Positions 1-7,469 of a DNA stretch of 7,469 nucleotides are shown in pieces. Position 1 is the first letter of the stretch. Each line of letters begins with the position of its first letter. The translations under genes were made by a program, and so were the position numbers. The stretch comes from a virus (lineage: Duplodnaviria; Heunggongvirae; Uroviricota; Caudoviricetes): IMG/VR virus record IMGVR_UViG_2778261691_000002, positions 1-7,469 of that record; one strand, given 5' to 3'. Under the pieces are notes generated by a model. The model made no database searches and was not told where the DNA came from. It saw nothing but the letters and a program-made list of their open reading frames with translations.

Positions 1-46
1 CTGTGTTCTGGTCATTTGTTGACACACGTACATAGCCAATAAGCAT
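1..46 (-). CDS. Serine DNA invertase (Gin/Cin/Pin/Hin family), N-terminal 15 codons only; gene continues beyond the left window edge
   Basis: Reverse complement of 1..46 reads atg ctt att ggc tat gta cgt gtg tca aca aat gac cag aac aca g = MLIGYVRVSTNDQNT, the N-terminus I recognise from Gin/Pin-type invertases, including the catalytic-serine motif YVRVST. SD-like GGGAG lies 7 nt upstream on the minus strand (revcomp of 54..58). Located 55 bp from a 26-bp crossover site. Gin, Cin and Pin cannot be told apart from 15 residues. Confidence 0.85.
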   Translation of the reverse strand, partial: MLIGYVRVSTNDQNT

Positions 47-72: not shown

Positions 73-594
73 ATGATGCCATTTGCTCGTTATTTCTGCA
101 TTTTCATAAACGTTGGTTTGGGAGAAGGTTCTGCGTTGCCTGTTGGCGTACCAGTTCCTTGGCCTTCAGCTACGCCGCCGACAGGCTGGCTGAAATGCAA
201 CGGAGCAGCTTTTTCTGCTGAAGATTACCCTAATCTGGCAAAGGCTTACCCGACGTTAAAATTGCCTGATTTACGCGGTGAGTTTATTCGTGGCTGGGAT
301 GATGGAAAGGGAGTGGATAGTGGGCGAACTCTGCTTTCAGCACAAGGAGATGCTATCCGAAACATTACCGGGGTGGTTGGCTACAGTTCAATTGGCGATT
401 CACAAGGGTTATTAGGATACGTGTCAGGGGCCTTTTCGGCTTCGGAGTCAAAAGCTCCCGCATTAAGTGGTGCATCAGCATCCGGGTATCAACGCTCCCT
501 GTATGCGAATTTTAATGCTTCAGCCGTTGTCCCAACCGCAAATGAGAACCGCCCACGTAACATTGCCTTTAATTATATTGTGAGGGCTGCATAA
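73..594 (+). CDS. Alternative tail-fibre C-terminal cassette (Sv'-like, tail-collar domain), silent in this orientation; functional boundary is the crossover site at 113/114, not the ATG at 73
   Basis: Tail-collar-type motif PTGWLKCNGAAFSAEDYPNLAKAYPTLKLPDLRGEFIRGWDDG. The ORF begins only ~40 nt upstream of the crossover site and has no fibre N-terminal domain. Stop TAA at 592..594 overlaps the ATG of the downstream tfa (TAATG). Confidence 0.75.
   Translation: MMPFARYFCIFINVGLGEGSALPVGVPVPWPSATPPTGWLKCNGAAFSAEDYPNLAKAYPTLKLPDLRGEFIRGWDDGKGVDSGRTLLSAQGDAIRNITGVVGYSSIGDSQGLLGYVSGAFSASESKAPALSGASASGYQRSLYANFNASAVVPTANENRPRNIAFNYIVRAA
101..126. repeat. 26-bp invertase crossover site (gix/pix/hix-like), left copy
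   Basis: Plus strand ttttcataaacg|tt|ggtttgggagaa. The reverse complement of 1992..2017 is ctctcgaaaacc|tt|ggtttgggagaa: 21 of 26 positions identical, same central TT dinucleotide, imperfect dyad symmetry like hix (TTATCAAAAACC TT GGTTTTCAAGAA). Confidence 0.8.
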
Positions 595-1196
595 TGGATA
601 ACGCTGTATTAAATAGCGAGATTATTGCCACGAAGGCAGGGAATATTACCGTCTATAACTATGATGGTGAAACACGGGAATATATTTCCACTTCAAATGA
701 ATATCTTGCCGTTGGTGTTGGTATCCCGGCATATTCCTGTTTAGATTCACCAGGCACATATAAGGCTGGTTATGCTATCTGCCGTTCTGCAGATTTTAAC
801 TCATGGGAATATGTGCCAGACCATCGCGGTGAAATCGTCTATAACACCGAAACGGGAGAAGCCAAAGAAATCACAACTCCGGGTGATTACCCTGAAAATA
901 CAACCACTATCGCCCCGTTAACGCCATACGATAAATGGGATGGTGAGAAATGGGTGACCGATACTGAGGCACAGCACGGCGCAGCAGTAGATGCAGCAGA
1001 AGCACAGCGCCAGTCGCTGATTGATACTGCAATGGCCTCCATCAGTCTGATTCATCTGAAATTACAGGCCGGACGGAAGCTGACGCAGGCAGAAACCACC
1101 CGACTTAACGCTGTGCTGGATTACATTGACGCGGTGACGGCAACAGATACCAGCACCGCGCCGGATGTCATCTGGCCTGAACTGCCGGAGGCGTAG
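594..1196 (+). CDS. Tail fibre assembly chaperone (Tfa family), cognate to the silent fibre cassette
   Basis: 200 aa. C-terminal Tfa signature ...LNAVLDYIDAVTATDTSTAPDVIWPELP (compare lambda Tfa ...VDTSTAPDIEWP...). Start is translationally coupled to the upstream cassette. Length matches what I recall for e14 TfaE. Confidence 0.85.
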   Translation: MDNAVLNSEIIATKAGNITVYNYDGETREYISTSNEYLAVGVGIPAYSCLDSPGTYKAGYAICRSADFNSWEYVPDHRGEIVYNTETGEAKEITTPGDYPENTTTIAPLTPYDKWDGEKWVTDTEAQHGAAVDAAEAQRQSLIDTAMASISLIHLKLQAGRKLTQAETTRLNAVLDYIDAVTATDTSTAPDVIWPELPEA

Positions 1197-1611
1197 GCCA
1201 TTCAATATCTGGCGCCCCGGAAGTATCGACCAGTTCCAGTGCGTCCAGATAATCCAGCCACAAATTATATTGCGCCAGCTCGTCACCTTTCAGACGACCA
1301 ATAGCGGCTTTACCGGGCCATTGTTTACTGTTCATGTATTCGTTGGCCTGGTTAATTAGTAGCTGTCTTTCTGATTCAGTAATTTCAATAAGTTCTTCAT
1401 GCGTGGGTGGAGGAATATCTGCCCACGCAGGCAGCCCATCATCTCCGGCAATACGGATTTTTCCTTGTGGCGGTTCAGCCATAAACTCACTGATAATATT
1501 TTGATTTACTTCCTTAGCGTCTGATAAATCCCACCCCTCTGATTTATATTTATCAATCATATCCACAGGGAAAAAAGCATTATGCCTTGCGCTATAAACA
1601 TATTCGTTCAT
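1168..1611 (-). CDS. Tail fibre assembly chaperone (Tfa family), cognate to the currently expressed fibre
   Basis: C-terminal Tfa signature ...LWLDYLDALELVDTSGAPDIEWPTPP. I prefer the ATG at 1611..1609 (MNEYVYSA...), which has AGGGTGA 7-13 nt upstream, over the GTG at 1620 used by the ORF track. Sits directly downstream of the fibre gene. Confidence 0.8.
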   Translation of the reverse strand: MNEYVYSARHNAFFPVDMIDKYKSEGWDLSDAKEVNQNIISEFMAEPPQGKIRIAGDDGLPAWADIPPPTHEELIEITESERQLLINQANEYMNSKQWPGKAAIGRLKGDELAQYNLWLDYLDALELVDTSGAPDIEWPTPPAVQAR

Positions 1612-1631
1612 ATAAATCACCCTGAATAAAA

Positions 1632-2360
1632 TTACTCACCAACAGCCCACCAACTGTAATTCATCGATACCGTGTCGCTGGTTGATGACGTTCTGTAAGC
1701 AGAATTAAAACCGGTTAATGTTGGGCCTTCTGCGGTCATCACGAATCCCCGCCCAGCACCTAAAGGCGCACCACCATCACCAGAATGAGTAAGCATGGCG
1801 CAGTCCACTTTTTTAGGAAAAGGGATGCTGAATGTAATTCTCATTGTTTGCGTCGATAATGTCGGCGTAACCGCACCACGACCATATTGCAGGATTTTCC
1901 CGTTGGGTAATTTCATCCATCCATCACCACTGGCAAAAGAGGCCATGTCCGGTATCTGATTTTCCCCTGTTCCCACCCCCCGTTTCGCTGCTTCTCCCAA
2001 ACCAAGGTTTTCGAGAGCCGTTTTCACCGTGCCATCCGATTTGATATCACCAAACGGATTCTTGCGGCTCAGGTATTCAACAGCAAACCCCGATCCCAGC
2101 AATTCAACAAAACCGGGCAGATCACCATTATCAAGCACATCCCGTTGCGTTTTATCACTTACAAACTGGGCCAGAGCTGCAGCAATAAAGCTGGCCTGCC
2201 GAATAACCTTATTGACTTGCGCACTGGAGGCTTTCCCTGCTGTAAATCCGGATAAAAGCGCAGGCAACGCTTCCCATTCCTCCTGCGACATAACATTGGC
2301 ATTTTTACCCGTTGCGAATGCTTTAAAGTCATTTTTTGCCATCAGAGTAATACTCCCCAT
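1632..2360 (-). CDS. Tail fibre protein: constant N-terminal part (2360..2006) fused at the crossover site to a variable C-terminal receptor-binding part (1991..1632)
   Basis: Position at the end of the baseplate operon and followed by Tfa. The crossover site is in frame inside the ORF. An alternative start at ATG 2342..2340 (MAKNDF...) overlaps the upstream stop as TGATG and may be the true start. Short for a fibre (236-242 aa). Confidence 0.75.
1992..2017. repeat. 26-bp invertase crossover site, right copy, in inverted orientation relative to 101..126
   Basis: Plus strand ttctcccaaacc|aa|ggttttcgagag. Lies inside the minus-strand tail-fibre ORF, where it encodes ...ALENLGLGE... at the constant/variable junction. 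Confidence 0.8.
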
Positions 2361-3022
2361 GCCCCTACATCAAAACCACTGATAAATTCGTTATCCATAT
2401 CAAAACCAAAAAATTTTGAACCTTCCGATGGGGTTTCCACCGAAGGTGTTTCAATACCACCCGCCCACACCCCGGCGGCTTTTACTGTGAGATATCCCTG
2501 TTTAATTGCAGCAATTAACTCACGCGATACATCTGAAATATCAGTATCAGGAAAGACCCAGACCGATATCGTCATGTCCTGGTTATCGACAATCTGCATT
2601 CGCAGCCCGGATCCTGCTGTCGCCGTGTCAAGAATTGCTGGAAGCGAATCATTCCGTCCGTCCCAGTTATTAATCGCAATCTTCGCTTTAAGAATGACAC
2701 GATAAGTTTCATCGCTGAGATACATGTATCCTGAATCAGGATCGTATGGTCCCTGCCATACCCCCTGATCATATCCAAGCCCGTCGGTATCCCAGCTGAA
2801 ATAGACACCTGAGATAGGCTGGCTGACAACACGGCTACGTCCGATCCACAATCCAAGAATGTCAAGTTGCACACCAACCGCAGAGTCAATATCAAATGCA
2901 GTAATCAGCCCTCTGGTGGCAGCCGCAACATCAATAAGTGGCCGGGTCATCAGATCAACATGCGCAAGAAATTTAGGTTTGGTGGCGTGGTAGTTCGTGA
3001 TTAGTTCGGTGTATTTGCTCAT
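2342..3022 (-). CDS. Baseplate / tail-fibre-proximal protein (DUF2612-like; position equivalent to P2 gpI or Mu gp48)
   Basis: 226 aa. ATGA overlap with the upstream J-like gene at 3019..3022. Sits between the baseplate J-like gene and the tail fibre. Family assignment is by synteny and recollection, not a search. Confidence 0.6.
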
Positions 3023-4218
3023 GTCTCCACCGTTATAACGATATTTTCCGGGGTACAGGACGCAGATTCGTTGTATCTGATATCAATGTTTGATGACGAC
3101 AAAGCCCCCGGGGATTTCCCAATCGTCAGTTCCTGAATATCGTAATAGCGTGCATTCCCGCCACTCACCACGCCAAGATTCGCCGGTGAGTAAATGCGAC
3201 TTAAAAGGACCGAATCACCAATCATCAGACTATTGATATAGTCGGAAATAGCCTGCTGGATCTGCTGCCCTATCTGTGAGGTATAACCCGTAAAAACTTT
3301 TAATTTAATCCGGGCATAAACAGGTACATCACTGGAACGCGAAAATTTGATTACATGGGGATTGCCGTATTTATCCGGAACCGTAACGGATGTTGTACCG
3401 TGAGTGGCTGTTCCCTGGCCTTTATTCCCTCTGATAGCCTGAGCAATATCCGTCACATCACCGCCATCCACAATTACAGCAACAGAGTGTGGCGGTAACC
3501 CGTTACCGTCCTCCGAACCATTATCGTTTTCATAGAGTTTGTGGCGGGTTACACCGGTAACATTAGAAACAGCACCATTCAGTGCTTCAAATGGGGTTAT
3601 TGATGGTAACGCAACACTTTGCGACTGTCGGATACGTAACTCCGCATCAGTTTCTGCTGGAGTGCCTACAGTAGCTGCAGCAGGATTGGTTACCGAAACC
3701 CAGCCACGGGTTGGCGTATTAATTTCAGTGATAGTTCCAGCCAGCGCCGCCACTGCACCACTGACGGAACATGTTGCGGTCACCATCACTGTACCATCCA
3801 CGCCGACCACCACTGAAGCAGGCAAACGCCATATCACATTATTACTGTCTTTCACGCTGCCATTAATGATGGTTGTTCCGGCAGTTCCTGTAAGAAGCAA
3901 ATCAACCGTAGAATTCGTCGCGCCTTTACGTGAAATACCATTTATTTTCACGTTACTGGTCAGTGCAGCCCCATAGCCGGTTGCCGGTGAAAAACAGTTG
4001 TAGACAGTTATCGCCATATTATTGGCATCATGAATCGCCAGCGCCATCAGAGCCACCATCTGGCCGTCTTTGCTGTCCGGTTCGAGGTAGGCATCACTGC
4101 CATAAATCTGCTGAAAATAGCTAATCAGGGTGCTGAGTATCGTCTGATAATCAGGCGCACTGATCCCCTCCGCGGTTACCTTTGCAGATAAACCGAGAGA
4201 ATCAAGGTTCAGAGCCAT
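3019..4218 (-). CDS. Baseplate J-like protein (P2 gpJ / Mu gp47 / T4 gp6 family)
   Basis: 399 aa. TAATG stop/start overlap with the upstream W-like gene at 4216..4220. Position after the gp25/W-like gene. Gly/Thr/Val-rich beta-type composition typical of baseplate wedge proteins. Confidence 0.7.
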   Translation of the reverse strand: MALNLDSLGLSAKVTAEGISAPDYQTILSTLISYFQQIYGSDAYLEPDSKDGQMVALMALAIHDANNMAITVYNCFSPATGYGAALTSNVKINGISRKGATNSTVDLLLTGTAGTTIINGSVKDSNNVIWRLPASVVVGVDGTVMVTATCSVSGAVAALAGTITEINTPTRGWVSVTNPAAATVGTPAETDAELRIRQSQSVALPSITPFEALNGAVSNVTGVTRHKLYENDNGSEDGNGLPPHSVAVIVDGGDVTDIAQAIRGNKGQGTATHGTTSVTVPDKYGNPHVIKFSRSSDVPVYARIKLKVFTGYTSQIGQQIQQAISDYINSLMIGDSVLLSRIYSPANLGVVSGGNARYYDIQELTIGKSPGALSSSNIDIRYNESASCTPENIVITVET

Positions 4219-4571
4219 TACGCCTCCGATGTAACAGTCGTTATTCCATAAAGAGTGTCGATTTCAGCGGAAAACATGACACGTCGGGTCGTGGTATCCA
4301 CCGTCGTATTGAAAGAGAGGATTGATTTAACGCCCTGCGTTTCGAGGATGCGCTTACGGATCGCCAGGTTGTAGGTTTCCGGCTTCTGCTTACCGAGTAC
4401 GGACTGGATCCACGGAGTCCCCTCGGTGGTGTCGAGAAACCATTGCCCATACCACAATTCGAATCGCGTTTTTACCGCCTGCGCCACGGCCTCCGGTGAG
4501 TTAATCAGCCAGGTGTCATCACCGCTGCCAAAGGTGTAATCGCCATCGGCGTCTTCACGTCTGTATCGCAT
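4218..4571 (-). CDS. Baseplate protein, GPW/gp25-like (P2 gpW / Mu gp46 position)
   Basis: 117 aa, the typical size for this family. TGATG overlap with the upstream spike gene at 4569..4573. Synteny V-W-J. Confidence 0.6.
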   Translation of the reverse strand: MRYRREDADGDYTFGSGDDTWLINSPEAVAQAVKTRFELWYGQWFLDTTEGTPWIQSVLGKQKPETYNLAIRKRILETQGVKSILSFNTTVDTTTRRVMFSAEIDTLYGITTVTSEA

Positions 4572-5323
4572 CAGTTTACTCCGTCGGTATTGCTTCCACC
4601 GCGCTGAACACCACCATGAGTGTGCGTATCATCAATTGGCTTGCCGTTAGCCTTCACGCTACCCAAAAACTCAACAGCACCAGTGATTTTTGAAGCCACA
4701 CCAGAAACCACAGACCCCACCATGCCACCCATCCAGGTTAACAGGCCATGAATGGTTACTTTCTCAGAAAAATCAGCCAGAGGGGCAACCACATCAAGAC
4801 CACCCGGAGCGACAATTTTAATTTTCCTGGTATCAGGATTAAGCTCAAAATAGGTGCTGCCGTCATCACTACGCAACTGTGTGGCACTGGTATTAATACC
4901 GCTAATCTTCCTTGCCTGCGACTGGGGACCGACAATACAAAACGCATCCGATAAATCATGCATTCTGTCATCGACCGGCTCCTGTATCCCGCCGCTCTGC
5001 CACCAGAAATCAATACAACGATCGGCAAAAATCATCAAACATTCATCACCGGCTTTAACTGGGAACGTTAGCGTGCATCCTCCGCCGCGCGGGAATACCA
5101 CTGGCACATCCACCAGCAATGGGTAATTTTGGGTAATGCGGTTGCCGTCATTATCCTTTTCAACCGAACGGATAGCAGGCTGCACAACTGCCGTCACCGC
5201 ATCAGGATCGAATGACTGAATAATGCCAGGCAAGGCGACACGGATCTGGTTCTTTGTTGTTTCCCGTTCAGATTTGAATGTTTCGGCAAGGTCGCCGCTG
5301 CGGGTCTGGTCAGATACGGCCAT
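4571..5323 (-). CDS. Baseplate central spike / assembly protein V-like (P2 gpV / Mu gp45 position)
   Basis: 250 aa. ATG at 5323..5321 with GGAG about 10 nt upstream. C-terminal tip ...KPIDDTHTHGGVQRGG has an HxH motif like the metal-binding spike apex. First gene after the inserted cassette and terminator. Confidence 0.65.
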   Translation of the reverse strand: MAVSDQTRSGDLAETFKSERETTKNQIRVALPGIIQSFDPDAVTAVVQPAIRSVEKDNDGNRITQNYPLLVDVPVVFPRGGGCTLTFPVKAGDECLMIFADRCIDFWWQSGGIQEPVDDRMHDLSDAFCIVGPQSQARKISGINTSATQLRSDDGSTYFELNPDTRKIKIVAPGGLDVVAPLADFSEKVTIHGLLTWMGGMVGSVVSGVASKITGAVEFLGSVKANGKPIDDTHTHGGVQRGGSNTDGVN

Positions 5324-5384: not shown

Positions 5385-5558
5385 CTAACTATCTTTCTTG
5401 GGAAAAGTTGAAGGCTTGTCGTGATAGCTTTCCGTCATAATTTCGATATCCCCGAAAGGTACTCTAGCCATAATCTCTTGCTCATAGTTATCTAGGAAAG
5501 AGACCTCAGGCTCACTTGGTTTAGGTTGTGGTTCATTTTGGTCTTCTGGACAGGACAT
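5385..5558 (-). CDS. Hypothetical small acidic Pro/Glu-rich protein (57 aa), putative partner of the membrane protein
   Basis: Hand translation: MSCPEDQNEPQPKPSEPEVSFLDNYEQEIMARVPFGDIEIMTESYHDKPSTFPKKDS. The ATG at 5558 is 2 nt after the TGA of the upstream membrane gene (TGAatATG), with AAGG 7 nt upstream. Ends 18 nt before the terminator. Not in the ORF track (under 60 aa). No family recognised; could be non-coding. Confidence 0.4.
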   Translation of the reverse strand: MSCPEDQNEPQPKPSEPEVSFLDNYEQEIMARVPFGDIEIMTESYHDKPSTFPKKDS

Positions 5559-5560
5559 AT

Positions 5561-6091
5561 TCAAACCTTACTTATTAACATGCACGTTACAGAAATAATA
5601 AAAAATACAAATGACATAACCATCCATCGAAACAACTCATTTACAAACGCTGATTTTTCTTTATGGATTTTCTCGATTCTATCAATAGCCCTACCATACA
5701 TTATCAAATGAAATCTGACTGTGTCATCTCTACTACCCCTCAGAAGAAATTCATGTTGTTCAGGTGTTCGATGCACAGGCATTTTGGGAATATTTCTAAG
5801 TTCCCAACATTTCCATAAATAATAAAAACAAAAAACCAAACATACAAAACATGAACATAGACACAATAGAGACAATCTTGCGGATAGACTAGTCTTTAAC
5901 TGTTGTCCCAGCTCAAAGGACCCAAAAACGGCTAATAATGCAGAAATCTCAACACCAAGCACAGCAAGAAGAAAATTAGCTTTGTCCTCTAACCGCCTGT
6001 ATGTTGTCTTAACTTCTTCATACCTGTCTCTCGAGTACGACAAAATCGTATCTACTTCAAGGCCAACAGCCTCATTCCTTTGATTGCACAT
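5561..6091 (-). CDS. Hypothetical three-TM membrane protein (176 aa) encoded in an AT-rich insert; no family recognised
   Basis: ATG at 6091..6089. Charged N-terminal ~40 aa, then hydrophobic segments FLLAVLGVEISALLAVFGSF, LSLLCLCSCFVCLVFCFYYLW and WMVMSFVFFIISVTCMLI, with a charged ~60-aa loop between the second and third. An open frame of 176 codons in roughly 36% GC DNA is unlikely by chance. Begins 6 nt after the stop of the signal-peptide gene. Confidence 0.6.
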   Translation of the reverse strand: MCNQRNEAVGLEVDTILSYSRDRYEEVKTTYRRLEDKANFLLAVLGVEISALLAVFGSFELGQQLKTSLSARLSLLCLCSCFVCLVFCFYYLWKCWELRNIPKMPVHRTPEQHEFLLRGSRDDTVRFHLIMYGRAIDRIEKIHKEKSAFVNELFRWMVMSFVFFIISVTCMLISKV

Positions 6092-6097
6092 ATTGTA

Positions 6098-6451
6098 TTA
6101 ATCGTCAACCTTCTTACAAGGAAACGAACCTATGATTCTCGGCGCATCCATGCTGTTCTGCAGTAGTTGGACATTCAAGAAACGCGTTTCGGTACCCGGA
6201 CGGCGAATGAACTCGAAACCGTAATTGTTACCGTCTTTGGCTGGCATAAGCCCCATATCCGCCTTCATTCCATTACCGTTGCCGAGCGTTTTGATTTTCT
6301 GGGAGGTAACTGTCTCACCATTAATCCTGAACAATGAATCAGGAATCAACTCTAATTTGTAGCCACCACACTGAAGCGTGACACCGCCAGGATTCGCAGC
6401 AAATGCGAACCCCGGAAGGAAACAGAGTCCAATAACAATCCACTTTTTCAC
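6098..6451 (-). CDS. Hypothetical secreted/periplasmic protein with Sec signal peptide (117 aa)
   Basis: N-terminus MKKWIVIGLCFLPGFAFA|ANPGG is a classic signal peptide with an AFA-A signal peptidase I site and no lipobox. GTG start at 6451..6449 shares one base with the TAG of the upstream gene (taGTG), with GAGG upstream. Two Cys in the mature part (possible disulfide). Normal GC (~47%). Confidence 0.65.
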   Translation of the reverse strand: MKKWIVIGLCFLPGFAFAANPGGVTLQCGGYKLELIPDSLFRINGETVTSQKIKTLGNGNGMKADMGLMPAKDGNNYGFEFIRRPGTETRFLNVQLLQNSMDAPRIIGSFPCKKVDD

Positions 6452-7469
6452 TATCCTACCTCACGCTGTAAAGACGACGCCGAACGAAGATCCGCCGCAC
6501 CGCGCGCTTCGCACATCATATCCATGTACCACGCCTGGCCCCTTGTGTCGCCAGTGTACATAATCCCGCGCACAATATAAACGCCATCCGTTGCGATGCT
6601 GGCAGGCTGCGATATGGTGCCGCTTAGCGTAATATTTCCGTCCGTGTTCTGGTCGGTGATCTGCCCACCAGCCATAGCGATATCGTTGTTCGACAACGCG
6701 GTGCGATATACGGAAGCCTGATCCAGTTGAATGAGCCCATTAACCCGGATGTTCGGATTAATAAGCGCGCGGACGTTTACGCCGTTGCCGATGGTCTGCT
6801 GCGGCATGCCAATAAGCCCGGTAGCGCTGTTGAGCACAATCGCTTCGTGAACATATTCATTATTCACCACCATCTGGCGCTGACCATCCACGAATTGCCA
6901 TGTTGCGCCACATTGCCCGGCTACGTTATCCATTAGATGCCGCGTCATGCCAAAGAGCACCCGCCCCCGGGGGAATACAGTAGCAGGCATTTCAGGCGTC
7001 AGGCCTTCGGTCGCACCTTTGGCTTCGAAGTCTTTCATCAGCGCACGGTTCACATCAGCGACCGTGTAACCGGCAGCCAGCGTCTGTGAGGTTATACTGG
7101 TGGCAAAAGCCAGATCAGTATCTGCTGCCTGAATCAGGACGTAGGAATCAACCGGACTGTCTTTTCCTGTGACCGAGTAGCGAATTTCACCGCTGAAAAT
7201 CAGTCCGTAGTTGCGGCCATCTCTCTGGCCCACATCTGCCGCGTCGACTTCGCGCACGGTCCCGACGTCGCTTGCCGCCACCTCCGGCGCGATACCGTCG
7301 TAACCGGCAATCAGCCGCACTTTCGAAAATTCCTTCCCGGTGATTCGGTTCACAGTATCTGCCGAGAGGTTATAAATTTTGATAGTCCCTACCCGGGACG
7401 CGCTGCTGATGTTGAACCAGTCGATCGTAAAGGTGACTTTGAAATCACTTAGCTCAATTCCCTGACCGT
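6451..7469 (-). CDS. Phage tail/baseplate structural protein, 5'-truncated by the window edge (possibly baseplate hub, Mu gp44 / P2 gpD position)
   Basis: The frame stays open from the annotated GTG at 7353 up to position 7469 (hand-translated upstream codons ...GQGIELSDFKVTFTIDWFNISSASRVGTIKIYNLSADT-V-NRITGKEF...), so the real start is outside the window. Gly/Thr/Asn/Val-rich composition. The hub assignment is from synteny only. Confidence 0.5.
   Translation of the reverse strand, partial: GQGIELSDFKVTFTIDWFNISSASRVGTIKIYNLSADTVNRITGKEFSKVRLIAGYDGIAPEVAASDVGTVREVDAADVGQRDGRNYGLIFSGEIRYSVTGKDSPVDSYVLIQAADTDLAFATSITSQTLAAGYTVADVNRALMKDFEAKGATEGLTPEMPATVFPRGRVLFGMTRHLMDNVAGQCGATWQFVDGQRQMVVNNEYVHEAIVLNSATGLIGMPQQTIGNGVNVRALINPNIRVNGLIQLDQASVYRTALSNNDIAMAGGQITDQNTDGNITLSGTISQPASIATDGVYIVRGIMYTGDTRGQAWYMDMMCEARGAADLRSASSLQREVG

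Follow-up and report, generated by a model that had tools for sequence, protein, structure and literature searches.

The 7469-bp stretch of DNA analysed here, referred to below as the window, very probably carries a two-state, invertase-driven host-range switch acting on the tail fibre of a myovirus-type Escherichia coli prophage. Two crossover sites in inverted orientation enclose a segment that holds two alternative fibre tips, each with its own tail-fibre assembly gene, and both orientations of the segment are found in natural genomes. The feature is of a kind already known, an ordinary prophage DNA switch like the P segment of the e14 element. As a discovery it matters little, being a textbook invertible host-range switch.

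Anatomy and natural states of the invertible segment

The minus strand of the window is a myovirus baseplate operon that ends in the fibre gene. Its features, from the operon to the left end of the window, are listed below.

6451-7353, minus strand: hub-like gene
5385-6451, minus strand: low-GC insert of small ORFs
4571-5323, minus strand: membrane-puncturing spike
4218-4571, minus strand: 117-aa protein, sheath initiator by annotation of the homologous locus
3019-4218, minus strand: Baseplate_J
2342-3022, minus strand: DUF2612 or 'baseplate wedge 1' gene (Pfam 4.6e-47, profile positions 1-177 of 181; homologous-locus annotation)
1632-2342 (ORF 1632-2360), minus strand: fibre gene
2005-2342, minus strand: constant N-terminal part of the fibre, about 112-117 aa, predicted helical
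1992-2017, plus strand: right 26-bp crossover site, TTCTCCCAAACC AA GGTTTTCGAGAG, inside the fibre ORF
1632-1991, minus strand: expressed variable cassette, Gp53-like_C tip, 119 aa (Pfam; profile matches to solved structures)
1168-1620, minus strand: expressed tail-fibre assembly chaperone, 150 aa (Pfam Caudo_TAP 1.7e-30; BLASTP 54% identity to K-12 TfaP)
594-1196, plus strand: silent tail-fibre assembly chaperone, 200 aa (Pfam Caudo_TAP 6.6e-32; BLASTP 90% identity to K-12 TfaE)
128-594, plus strand: silent variable cassette, Collar-type tip, 155 aa after the junction (Pfam; PDB matches)
102-127, minus strand: left 26-bp crossover site, TTCTCCCAAACC AA CGTTT... as read on the minus strand
73-107, plus strand: short leader ORF, MMPFARYFCIFI..., outside the invertible segment and homologous to the K-12 stfE leader MPFACYFFIFINVGLGEG
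1-46, minus strand: 5' end of a serine DNA invertase gene (Pin/Gin/Hin-type), first 15 codons MLIGYVRVSTNDQNT (translation; homologous-locus annotation)

Inverted copies of TTCTCCCAAACCAA(G/C)GTTT, with at most one mismatch, lie at 108-126 on the minus strand and at 1992-2010 on the plus strand. The window contains exactly two crossover sites, where 0 are expected by chance, and their cores, which share the central AA, match in 19 of 20 positions. Their layout of half-site, central AA and half-site is typical of hix, gix and pix sites, hixL among them. The right site falls within the fibre ORF, where it encodes the residues ...ENLGLGE. A multi-inversion shufflon of the p15B Min type was considered and rejected, since no third crossover site was found within the window. 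The invertase gene runs off the left end of the window after 15 codons; its start lies adjacent to and outside the invertible segment, and in homologous loci the same place is taken by pinE or a DNA invertase. The Fis-dependent recombinational enhancer that segments of the Gin/Cin/Pin/Hin type carry in the 5' part of this gene would lie beyond that end.

Both variable cassettes include a tail-fibre assembly gene, and by Pfam the two are Caudo_TAP genes that converge on each other. The gp53-like tip is paired with the 150-aa Tfa as its cognate chaperone, and the collar tip with the 200-aa Tfa. The convergent tfa genes share a 29-nt overlap (1168-1196), which is flanked by an 18-nt inverted repeat (1115-1132 and 1241-1258, 83% complementary). 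This repeat reflects a C-terminal motif common to both Tfa proteins (LDYIDA and LDYLDA) and is not a recombination site.

Both orientations of the segment give in-frame, full-length fibres. The present one encodes 236 aa with a 119-aa variable part, and inverting the segment in silico at the central dinucleotide extends the fibre to 272 aa, or 278 aa if the upstream start is used, of which the variable part makes up 155 aa. This predicted flipped fusion has a natural counterpart in P0121, a 272-aa E. coli protein with 99% identity over 100% of the fusion. Both states were also recovered in a survey of 5426 complete E. coli genomes with a 300-nt probe across the present junction and another across the in-silico flipped junction: intact matches numbered 87 genomes for the present junction and 63 for the flipped one. 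Strain MS20658 carries the mirror image of the locus in the window, with the collar fibre and tfaE in the expressed position after the DUF2612 gene and a gp53-like ORF with its tfa in the silent position.

Next to the segment in MS20658 lies a truncated recombinase pseudogene (L006 1448-1715), and in the related strain MEI1A-0323 an XF1762-family gene stands beside the segment with no annotated invertase (L001 5342-6046). The switch appears to be locked in some close relatives such as these two. The homologous prophage of MEI1A-0323 adjoins tRNA-Arg and intS. The backbone of the window is 97% identical to the deposited phage records vB_EcoM-606R2 and vB_EcoM-611R5.

Under the reading that we favour, the late operon would be transcribed on the minus strand through the baseplate genes and the constant part of the fibre into whichever cassette faces it. 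A Pin-family serine recombinase, encoded just left of the window, would exchange strands at the central AA of both sites, and exchange at 102-127 and 1992-2017 would flip the 1.9-kb segment between them. In the present orientation the constant part would be joined to the 119-aa gp53-like jellyroll tip, followed by the 150-aa Tfa; in the other, it would be joined in frame to the 155-aa Collar-type tip, followed by the 200-aa TfaE-like chaperone. With low-frequency flipping, a lysogen population would release particles bearing either tip, each folded by its cognate Tfa. As the two tips are probably unrelated folds, they presumably bind different surface receptors. By homology to the Mu, P1 and e14 systems, we infer invertase activity, a trimeric fibre, chaperone dependence and a different receptor for each tip.

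A separate feature of the operon is the low-GC insert on the minus strand (5385-6451, GC 0.36-0.41), which sits between the hub-like and spike genes and holds three ORFs. The ORF at 6098-6451 encodes 117 aa and begins with what resembles a signal peptide, the one at 5561-6091 encodes a 176-aa membrane protein, and the one at 5385-5564 encodes 59 aa. The membrane protein has weak PADLOC matches to PycTM (E 2.6e-4), and no Pfam family scored above its cutoff. Because different genes occupy this place in related prophages (DUF2335 in the MEI1A-0323 and MS20658 loci, L001 and L006), the insert looks like a variable moron slot.

Known invertible segments and the leader ORF

Among studied systems, the locus most closely resembles the e14 P segment of E. 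coli K-12 (stfP-tfaP / tfaE-stfE, pinE), for which inversion and phase variation have been documented experimentally (PMC4272514; PMC12529663). The crossover core of the window is identical to the P-segment repeat, TTGGTTTGGGAGAAGG, as given in PMC12529663, and Kirigo et al. describe the inversion of this repeat by both PinE and PinQ (PMC12529663). The two elements also share their gene order, namely fibre, tfa, tfa', fibre tip' and invertase, the same 25-aa junction linker in their fibres, and the same pairing of tip families, with Gp53-like_C in StfP and Collar in stfE by Pfam. That the StfP tip is gp53-like and related to pyocins has already been pointed out in print. TfaE and TfaP are 90% and 54% identical to the respective Tfa proteins of the window, and the collar cassettes are 57% identical. 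The differences lie in the constant N-terminal domain, which is unrelated, and in its setting, as StfP follows a DUF2313 (P2 gpI-like) gene whereas the fibre of the window follows DUF2612. Furthermore, the gp53-like tips are only 35% identical and the collar insert is different.

A serine-invertase flip inside the fibre ORF is likewise known from the Mu G segment (S/U, S'/U', Gin) and the P1 C segment (Cin), in which a constant N-terminus is joined to either of two alternative C-termini, each with its own chaperone, as in the window. The tips of Mu S and S' also belong to different Pfam families (Gp34_trimer/Phage_fiber_2 and gp37_C, respectively). Mu S differs in its 169-aa constant part and long shaft. 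Its Pfam domains, Gp34_trimer and Phage_fiber_2, are absent from the fibre of the window in either orientation, and no sequence relationship to Mu S was found outside the junction. The switch in the window works like the G segment, but its fibre is not a Mu S homologue. The unusualness implied by the initial annotation, which had stressed a short fibre with two structurally different C-termini, fails on these comparisons: the e14 P segment has the same pairing of different folds and an even shorter fibre (StfP, 209 aa), and the tips of Mu S and S' differ as well.

The leader ORF reads into the silent cassette, forming a 173-aa StfE-like ORF at present and, after in-silico inversion, a 137-aa StfE2-like ORF that consists of the leader and the gp53-like tip. 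In e14, StfE2 was reported to block T2 adsorption after inversion by PinQ or PinE (Kirigo et al. 2025; PMC12529663). Besides or instead of changing host range, the switch could then be the host's own recombinase-controlled anti-phage device, in which a free tip would mask outer-membrane receptors. We consider this unlikely, even though conservation links the leader ORF to K-12 stfE, inversion would yield the leader followed by the gp53-like tip, and the e14 counterpart is reported to block T2 adsorption. The published StfE2 effect came from plasmid-expressed proteins, and the gp53-like tip of the window shares just 35% identity with that of e14 StfP. A promoter scan, in which matches overall were no more frequent than chance, found no promoter-like site before the leader ORF. 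Moreover, the element sits in an apparently intact baseplate operon, which makes host-range switching the simpler reading.

A related claim is that, in an apparently intact prophage, the flip also swaps a free leader-ORF protein between a 173-aa collar form and a 137-aa 'StfE2-type' form; we regard this as distinctly improbable. If true, the switch would also give the lysogen a defence, under recombinase control, in which receptors are masked against other phages.

Start, length and family of the fibre

The fibre of the host-range switch is 236 aa long from the ATG at 2342 (MAKNDFKAF...) or 242 aa from an upstream ATG. The former is almost certainly the true start, because it overlaps the stop codon of the DUF2612 wedge gene directly upstream (ATGA), is the start annotated in relatives and is the point at which homologues match from residue 1. 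The initial annotation had put the fibre at 236-242 aa, which holds for the expressed form with its two possible starts and not for the flipped fusion of 272 or 278 aa. The constant part, which that annotation had estimated at ~120 aa, measures 117 aa if counted from MAKND and 123 aa if the upstream ATG is used, with ...ENLGLGE as the last residues. This part is presumed to be a baseplate-attachment domain followed by a conserved linker.

The same annotation had called the fibre unusually short. It is indeed shorter than Mu S, which has 504 aa, but within its own family its length is normal. When the constant domain was searched against 1.84 billion representative proteins, 3036 representatives matched at E ≤ 1e-3. 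Among the best 150 of these 3036, lengths range from 94 to 597 aa with a median of 294, and 51 of the 150 are 250 aa or shorter; nearly all match the constant domain from their own residue 1. Tip families among the same best 150 of 3036 include Gp53-like_C (48), Gly_rich_2 (15) and Collar (9). The fibre is short because in this family hardly any shaft separates the attachment domain and linker from the tip, and nothing is missing from it.

Alternatively, the fibre could be short because the prophage is cryptic and its fibre gene has decayed, through truncation, a frameshift or loss of an upstream part. Such decay would have a precedent in e14, which is itself a cryptic element, and the window shows just 7.5 kb of the prophage. 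We nevertheless find it highly improbable. The upstream DUF2612 wedge gene is complete and joined to the fibre gene by the ATGA overlap, nearly all of the best 150 of 3036 representatives align with the N-terminus from residue 1, and the lengths in that set, given above, embrace that of the window fibre. The phage records with the 97% identical backbone carry a fibre of 264 aa, and the fibre protein is conserved on more than 1000 contigs at 96-100% identity, with one database protein (P0002) being 100% identical. A missed upstream exon or frameshift, which the initial annotation had named as one finding that would overturn its view of the fibre, is rejected on the same grounds: the wedge gene that abuts the start is complete, and conservation of the N-terminus begins at residue 1. 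The fibre proteins are already in databases under the names 'gp53-like domain-containing protein' and 'phage tail protein'.

The same cassette is also found behind another constant part. In the P2-like Escherichia phage pro483, the whole 1.9-kb segment and the invertase are ~93% identical to the window at the DNA level, and the cassette stands behind a longer, P2 H-type constant part to give a 399-aa fibre (L004 4643-5842). Fibre length is thus set by the constant module only.

Two tip families at a common junction

The expressed and silent tips belong to different Pfam families. The expressed tip matches Gp53-like_C (PF21882; E 2.2e-12, 47.7 bits, cutoff 24.9) and gave no Collar match in Pfam, whereas the silent ORF at 73-594 matches Collar (PF07484; E 1.5e-15, 57.3 bits, cutoff 24). 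This agrees with the initial annotation, which had seen a collar motif in the silent C-terminus and none in the expressed one. Profiles were built from 30 sequences for the gp53-like tip (A4) and from 10 for the collar tip (A5) and compared with solved structures.

Profile A4 matched AP22 gp53 (4MTM, 2e-11), the R1 pyocin fibre foot (6CXB, 7.5e-11; 6CL5, 6.5e-10), the short fibre gp92 of the Pakpunavirus P7-1 (9ZD7, 1.7e-8), R2 pyocin (6CT8 and 6CL6) and, faintly, Helix pomatia agglutinin. Its matches to pyocin foot and AP22 structures span 2e-11 to 6e-06. The 30-sequence profile was needed because a single-sequence PDB search of the expressed fibre gave only a marginal match, to 9ZD7 (E 1.2e-3). 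According to Salazar et al., eight strands form the jellyroll of the pyocin/AP22 foot, whose distal loops make a lectin-like network. By this homology, the expressed tip is predicted to be a lectin-type jellyroll 'foot' of the R-pyocin/AP22 gp53 kind. The R-type pyocin foot and AP22 gp53 (6CXB, 6CL5, 6CT8, 4MTM) are homologous to it at the profile level, and fibres of the pyocin type need a co-expressed chaperone (Salazar et al.). Pyocin fibres differ in having a long head and shaft before the foot, whereas the foot in the window follows almost directly after the attachment domain.

Profile A5 matched the T4 gp37 tip (2XGF, 2e-44), the phiTE short tail fibre (9CUY, 2e-29) and T4 gp12. The alignments of the silent tip with 2XGF and 9CUY extend over the terminal NIAFNYIVR motif, the return strand, so that the tip shares with T4 gp37, gp12 and the phiTE short fibre (2XGF, 1OCY, 9CUY) both the collar domain and the return strand ...NIAFNYIVR... 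Between the collar and the invariant C-terminal ...NRPRNIAFNYIVRAA lies a hypervariable block of ~60-70 aa (alignment A2). There is no histidine in the 155-aa silent tip, which therefore lacks the His-x-His iron needle of T4 gp37; compared with gp37, it has only the ~60-70-aa hypervariable insert and no long needle. HxH repeats are present in some relatives in alignment A5. Its profile matches point to a collar-family member that resembles segment 154-303 of the phiTE short fibre, and not to a gp37-type needle.

Several comparisons bear on the relation between the tips. BLASTP between them gave no match, and aligning profile A4 with A5 by hhalign found no relationship (7% probability over 12 columns). 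Four jackhmmer rounds from each tip over 390 collected homologues recovered 175 proteins for the gp53-like tip and 133 for the collar tip, with no overlap. The sets of solved homologues are likewise disjoint, with 4MTM and the pyocin feet on one side and 2XGF, gp12 and 9CUY on the other, and Salazar et al. describe 2XGF and 4MTM as structurally unrelated. These results support the assignment of the two variable C-termini to different, unrelated structural families, and with it the suggestion of the initial annotation that the two orientations give different receptor-binding folds.

AlphaFold2 monomers of both fibres were built from alignments A1 and A2, which are shallow, as near-identical E. 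coli sequences dominate the homologue listings. The model of the expressed fibre has a mean pLDDT of 48.3 and a predicted beta-rich tip with strands from 141 to 235; that of the flipped fibre has a mean pLDDT of 47.0. Foldseek found no PDB match at E ≤ 1e-3 for either low-pLDDT model. The fold assignments rest on sequence-profile homology to solved structures, because the monomer models are poor and their Foldseek matches stay above this threshold. Below significance (none at E ≤ 1e-3), the top matches of the expressed model were the R1 pyocin foot (6CL5 and 6CXB) and the C-domains of the phi297 and LKA1 tailspikes, followed by Helix agglutinin (an H-type lectin), discoidins and SLL-2. Precisely this set of structural neighbours is given by Salazar et al. 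For the flipped model, the top match was T4 gp37 (2XGF), again not at E ≤ 1e-3. The weak matches of both models agree with the evidence from sequence and are only corroborative.

That the two C-termini are instead divergent variants of one fold, with the switch altering only fine specificity, is effectively refuted: both tips would be distal ends of trimeric fibres dependent on Caudo_TAP chaperones, and the AlphaFold2 models are too poor for a direct comparison of folds, but the hhalign probability of 7%, the jackhmmer families of 175 and 133 proteins with no overlap, the disjoint solved homologues, the published description of 2XGF and 4MTM as structurally unrelated (Salazar et al.) and even the weak Foldseek top matches, which differ in the expected direction, all speak against it.

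The locus is a clean illustration of the ...ENLGLGE junction as a universal splice point, at which tips of apparently unrelated fold are swapped between unrelated fibre backbones; it is useful for the annotation of prophage host range and for the engineering of chimeric fibres or tailocins. The junction at the crossover site is a general point of module exchange. Always at ...LENLGL.., N-termini 96-100% identical to that of the window lead into at least 23 C-termini that are unlike one another, and these alternative fusions (P0241-P0263) range from 173 to 382 aa in length and include a P2 H-type tip among their C-termini.
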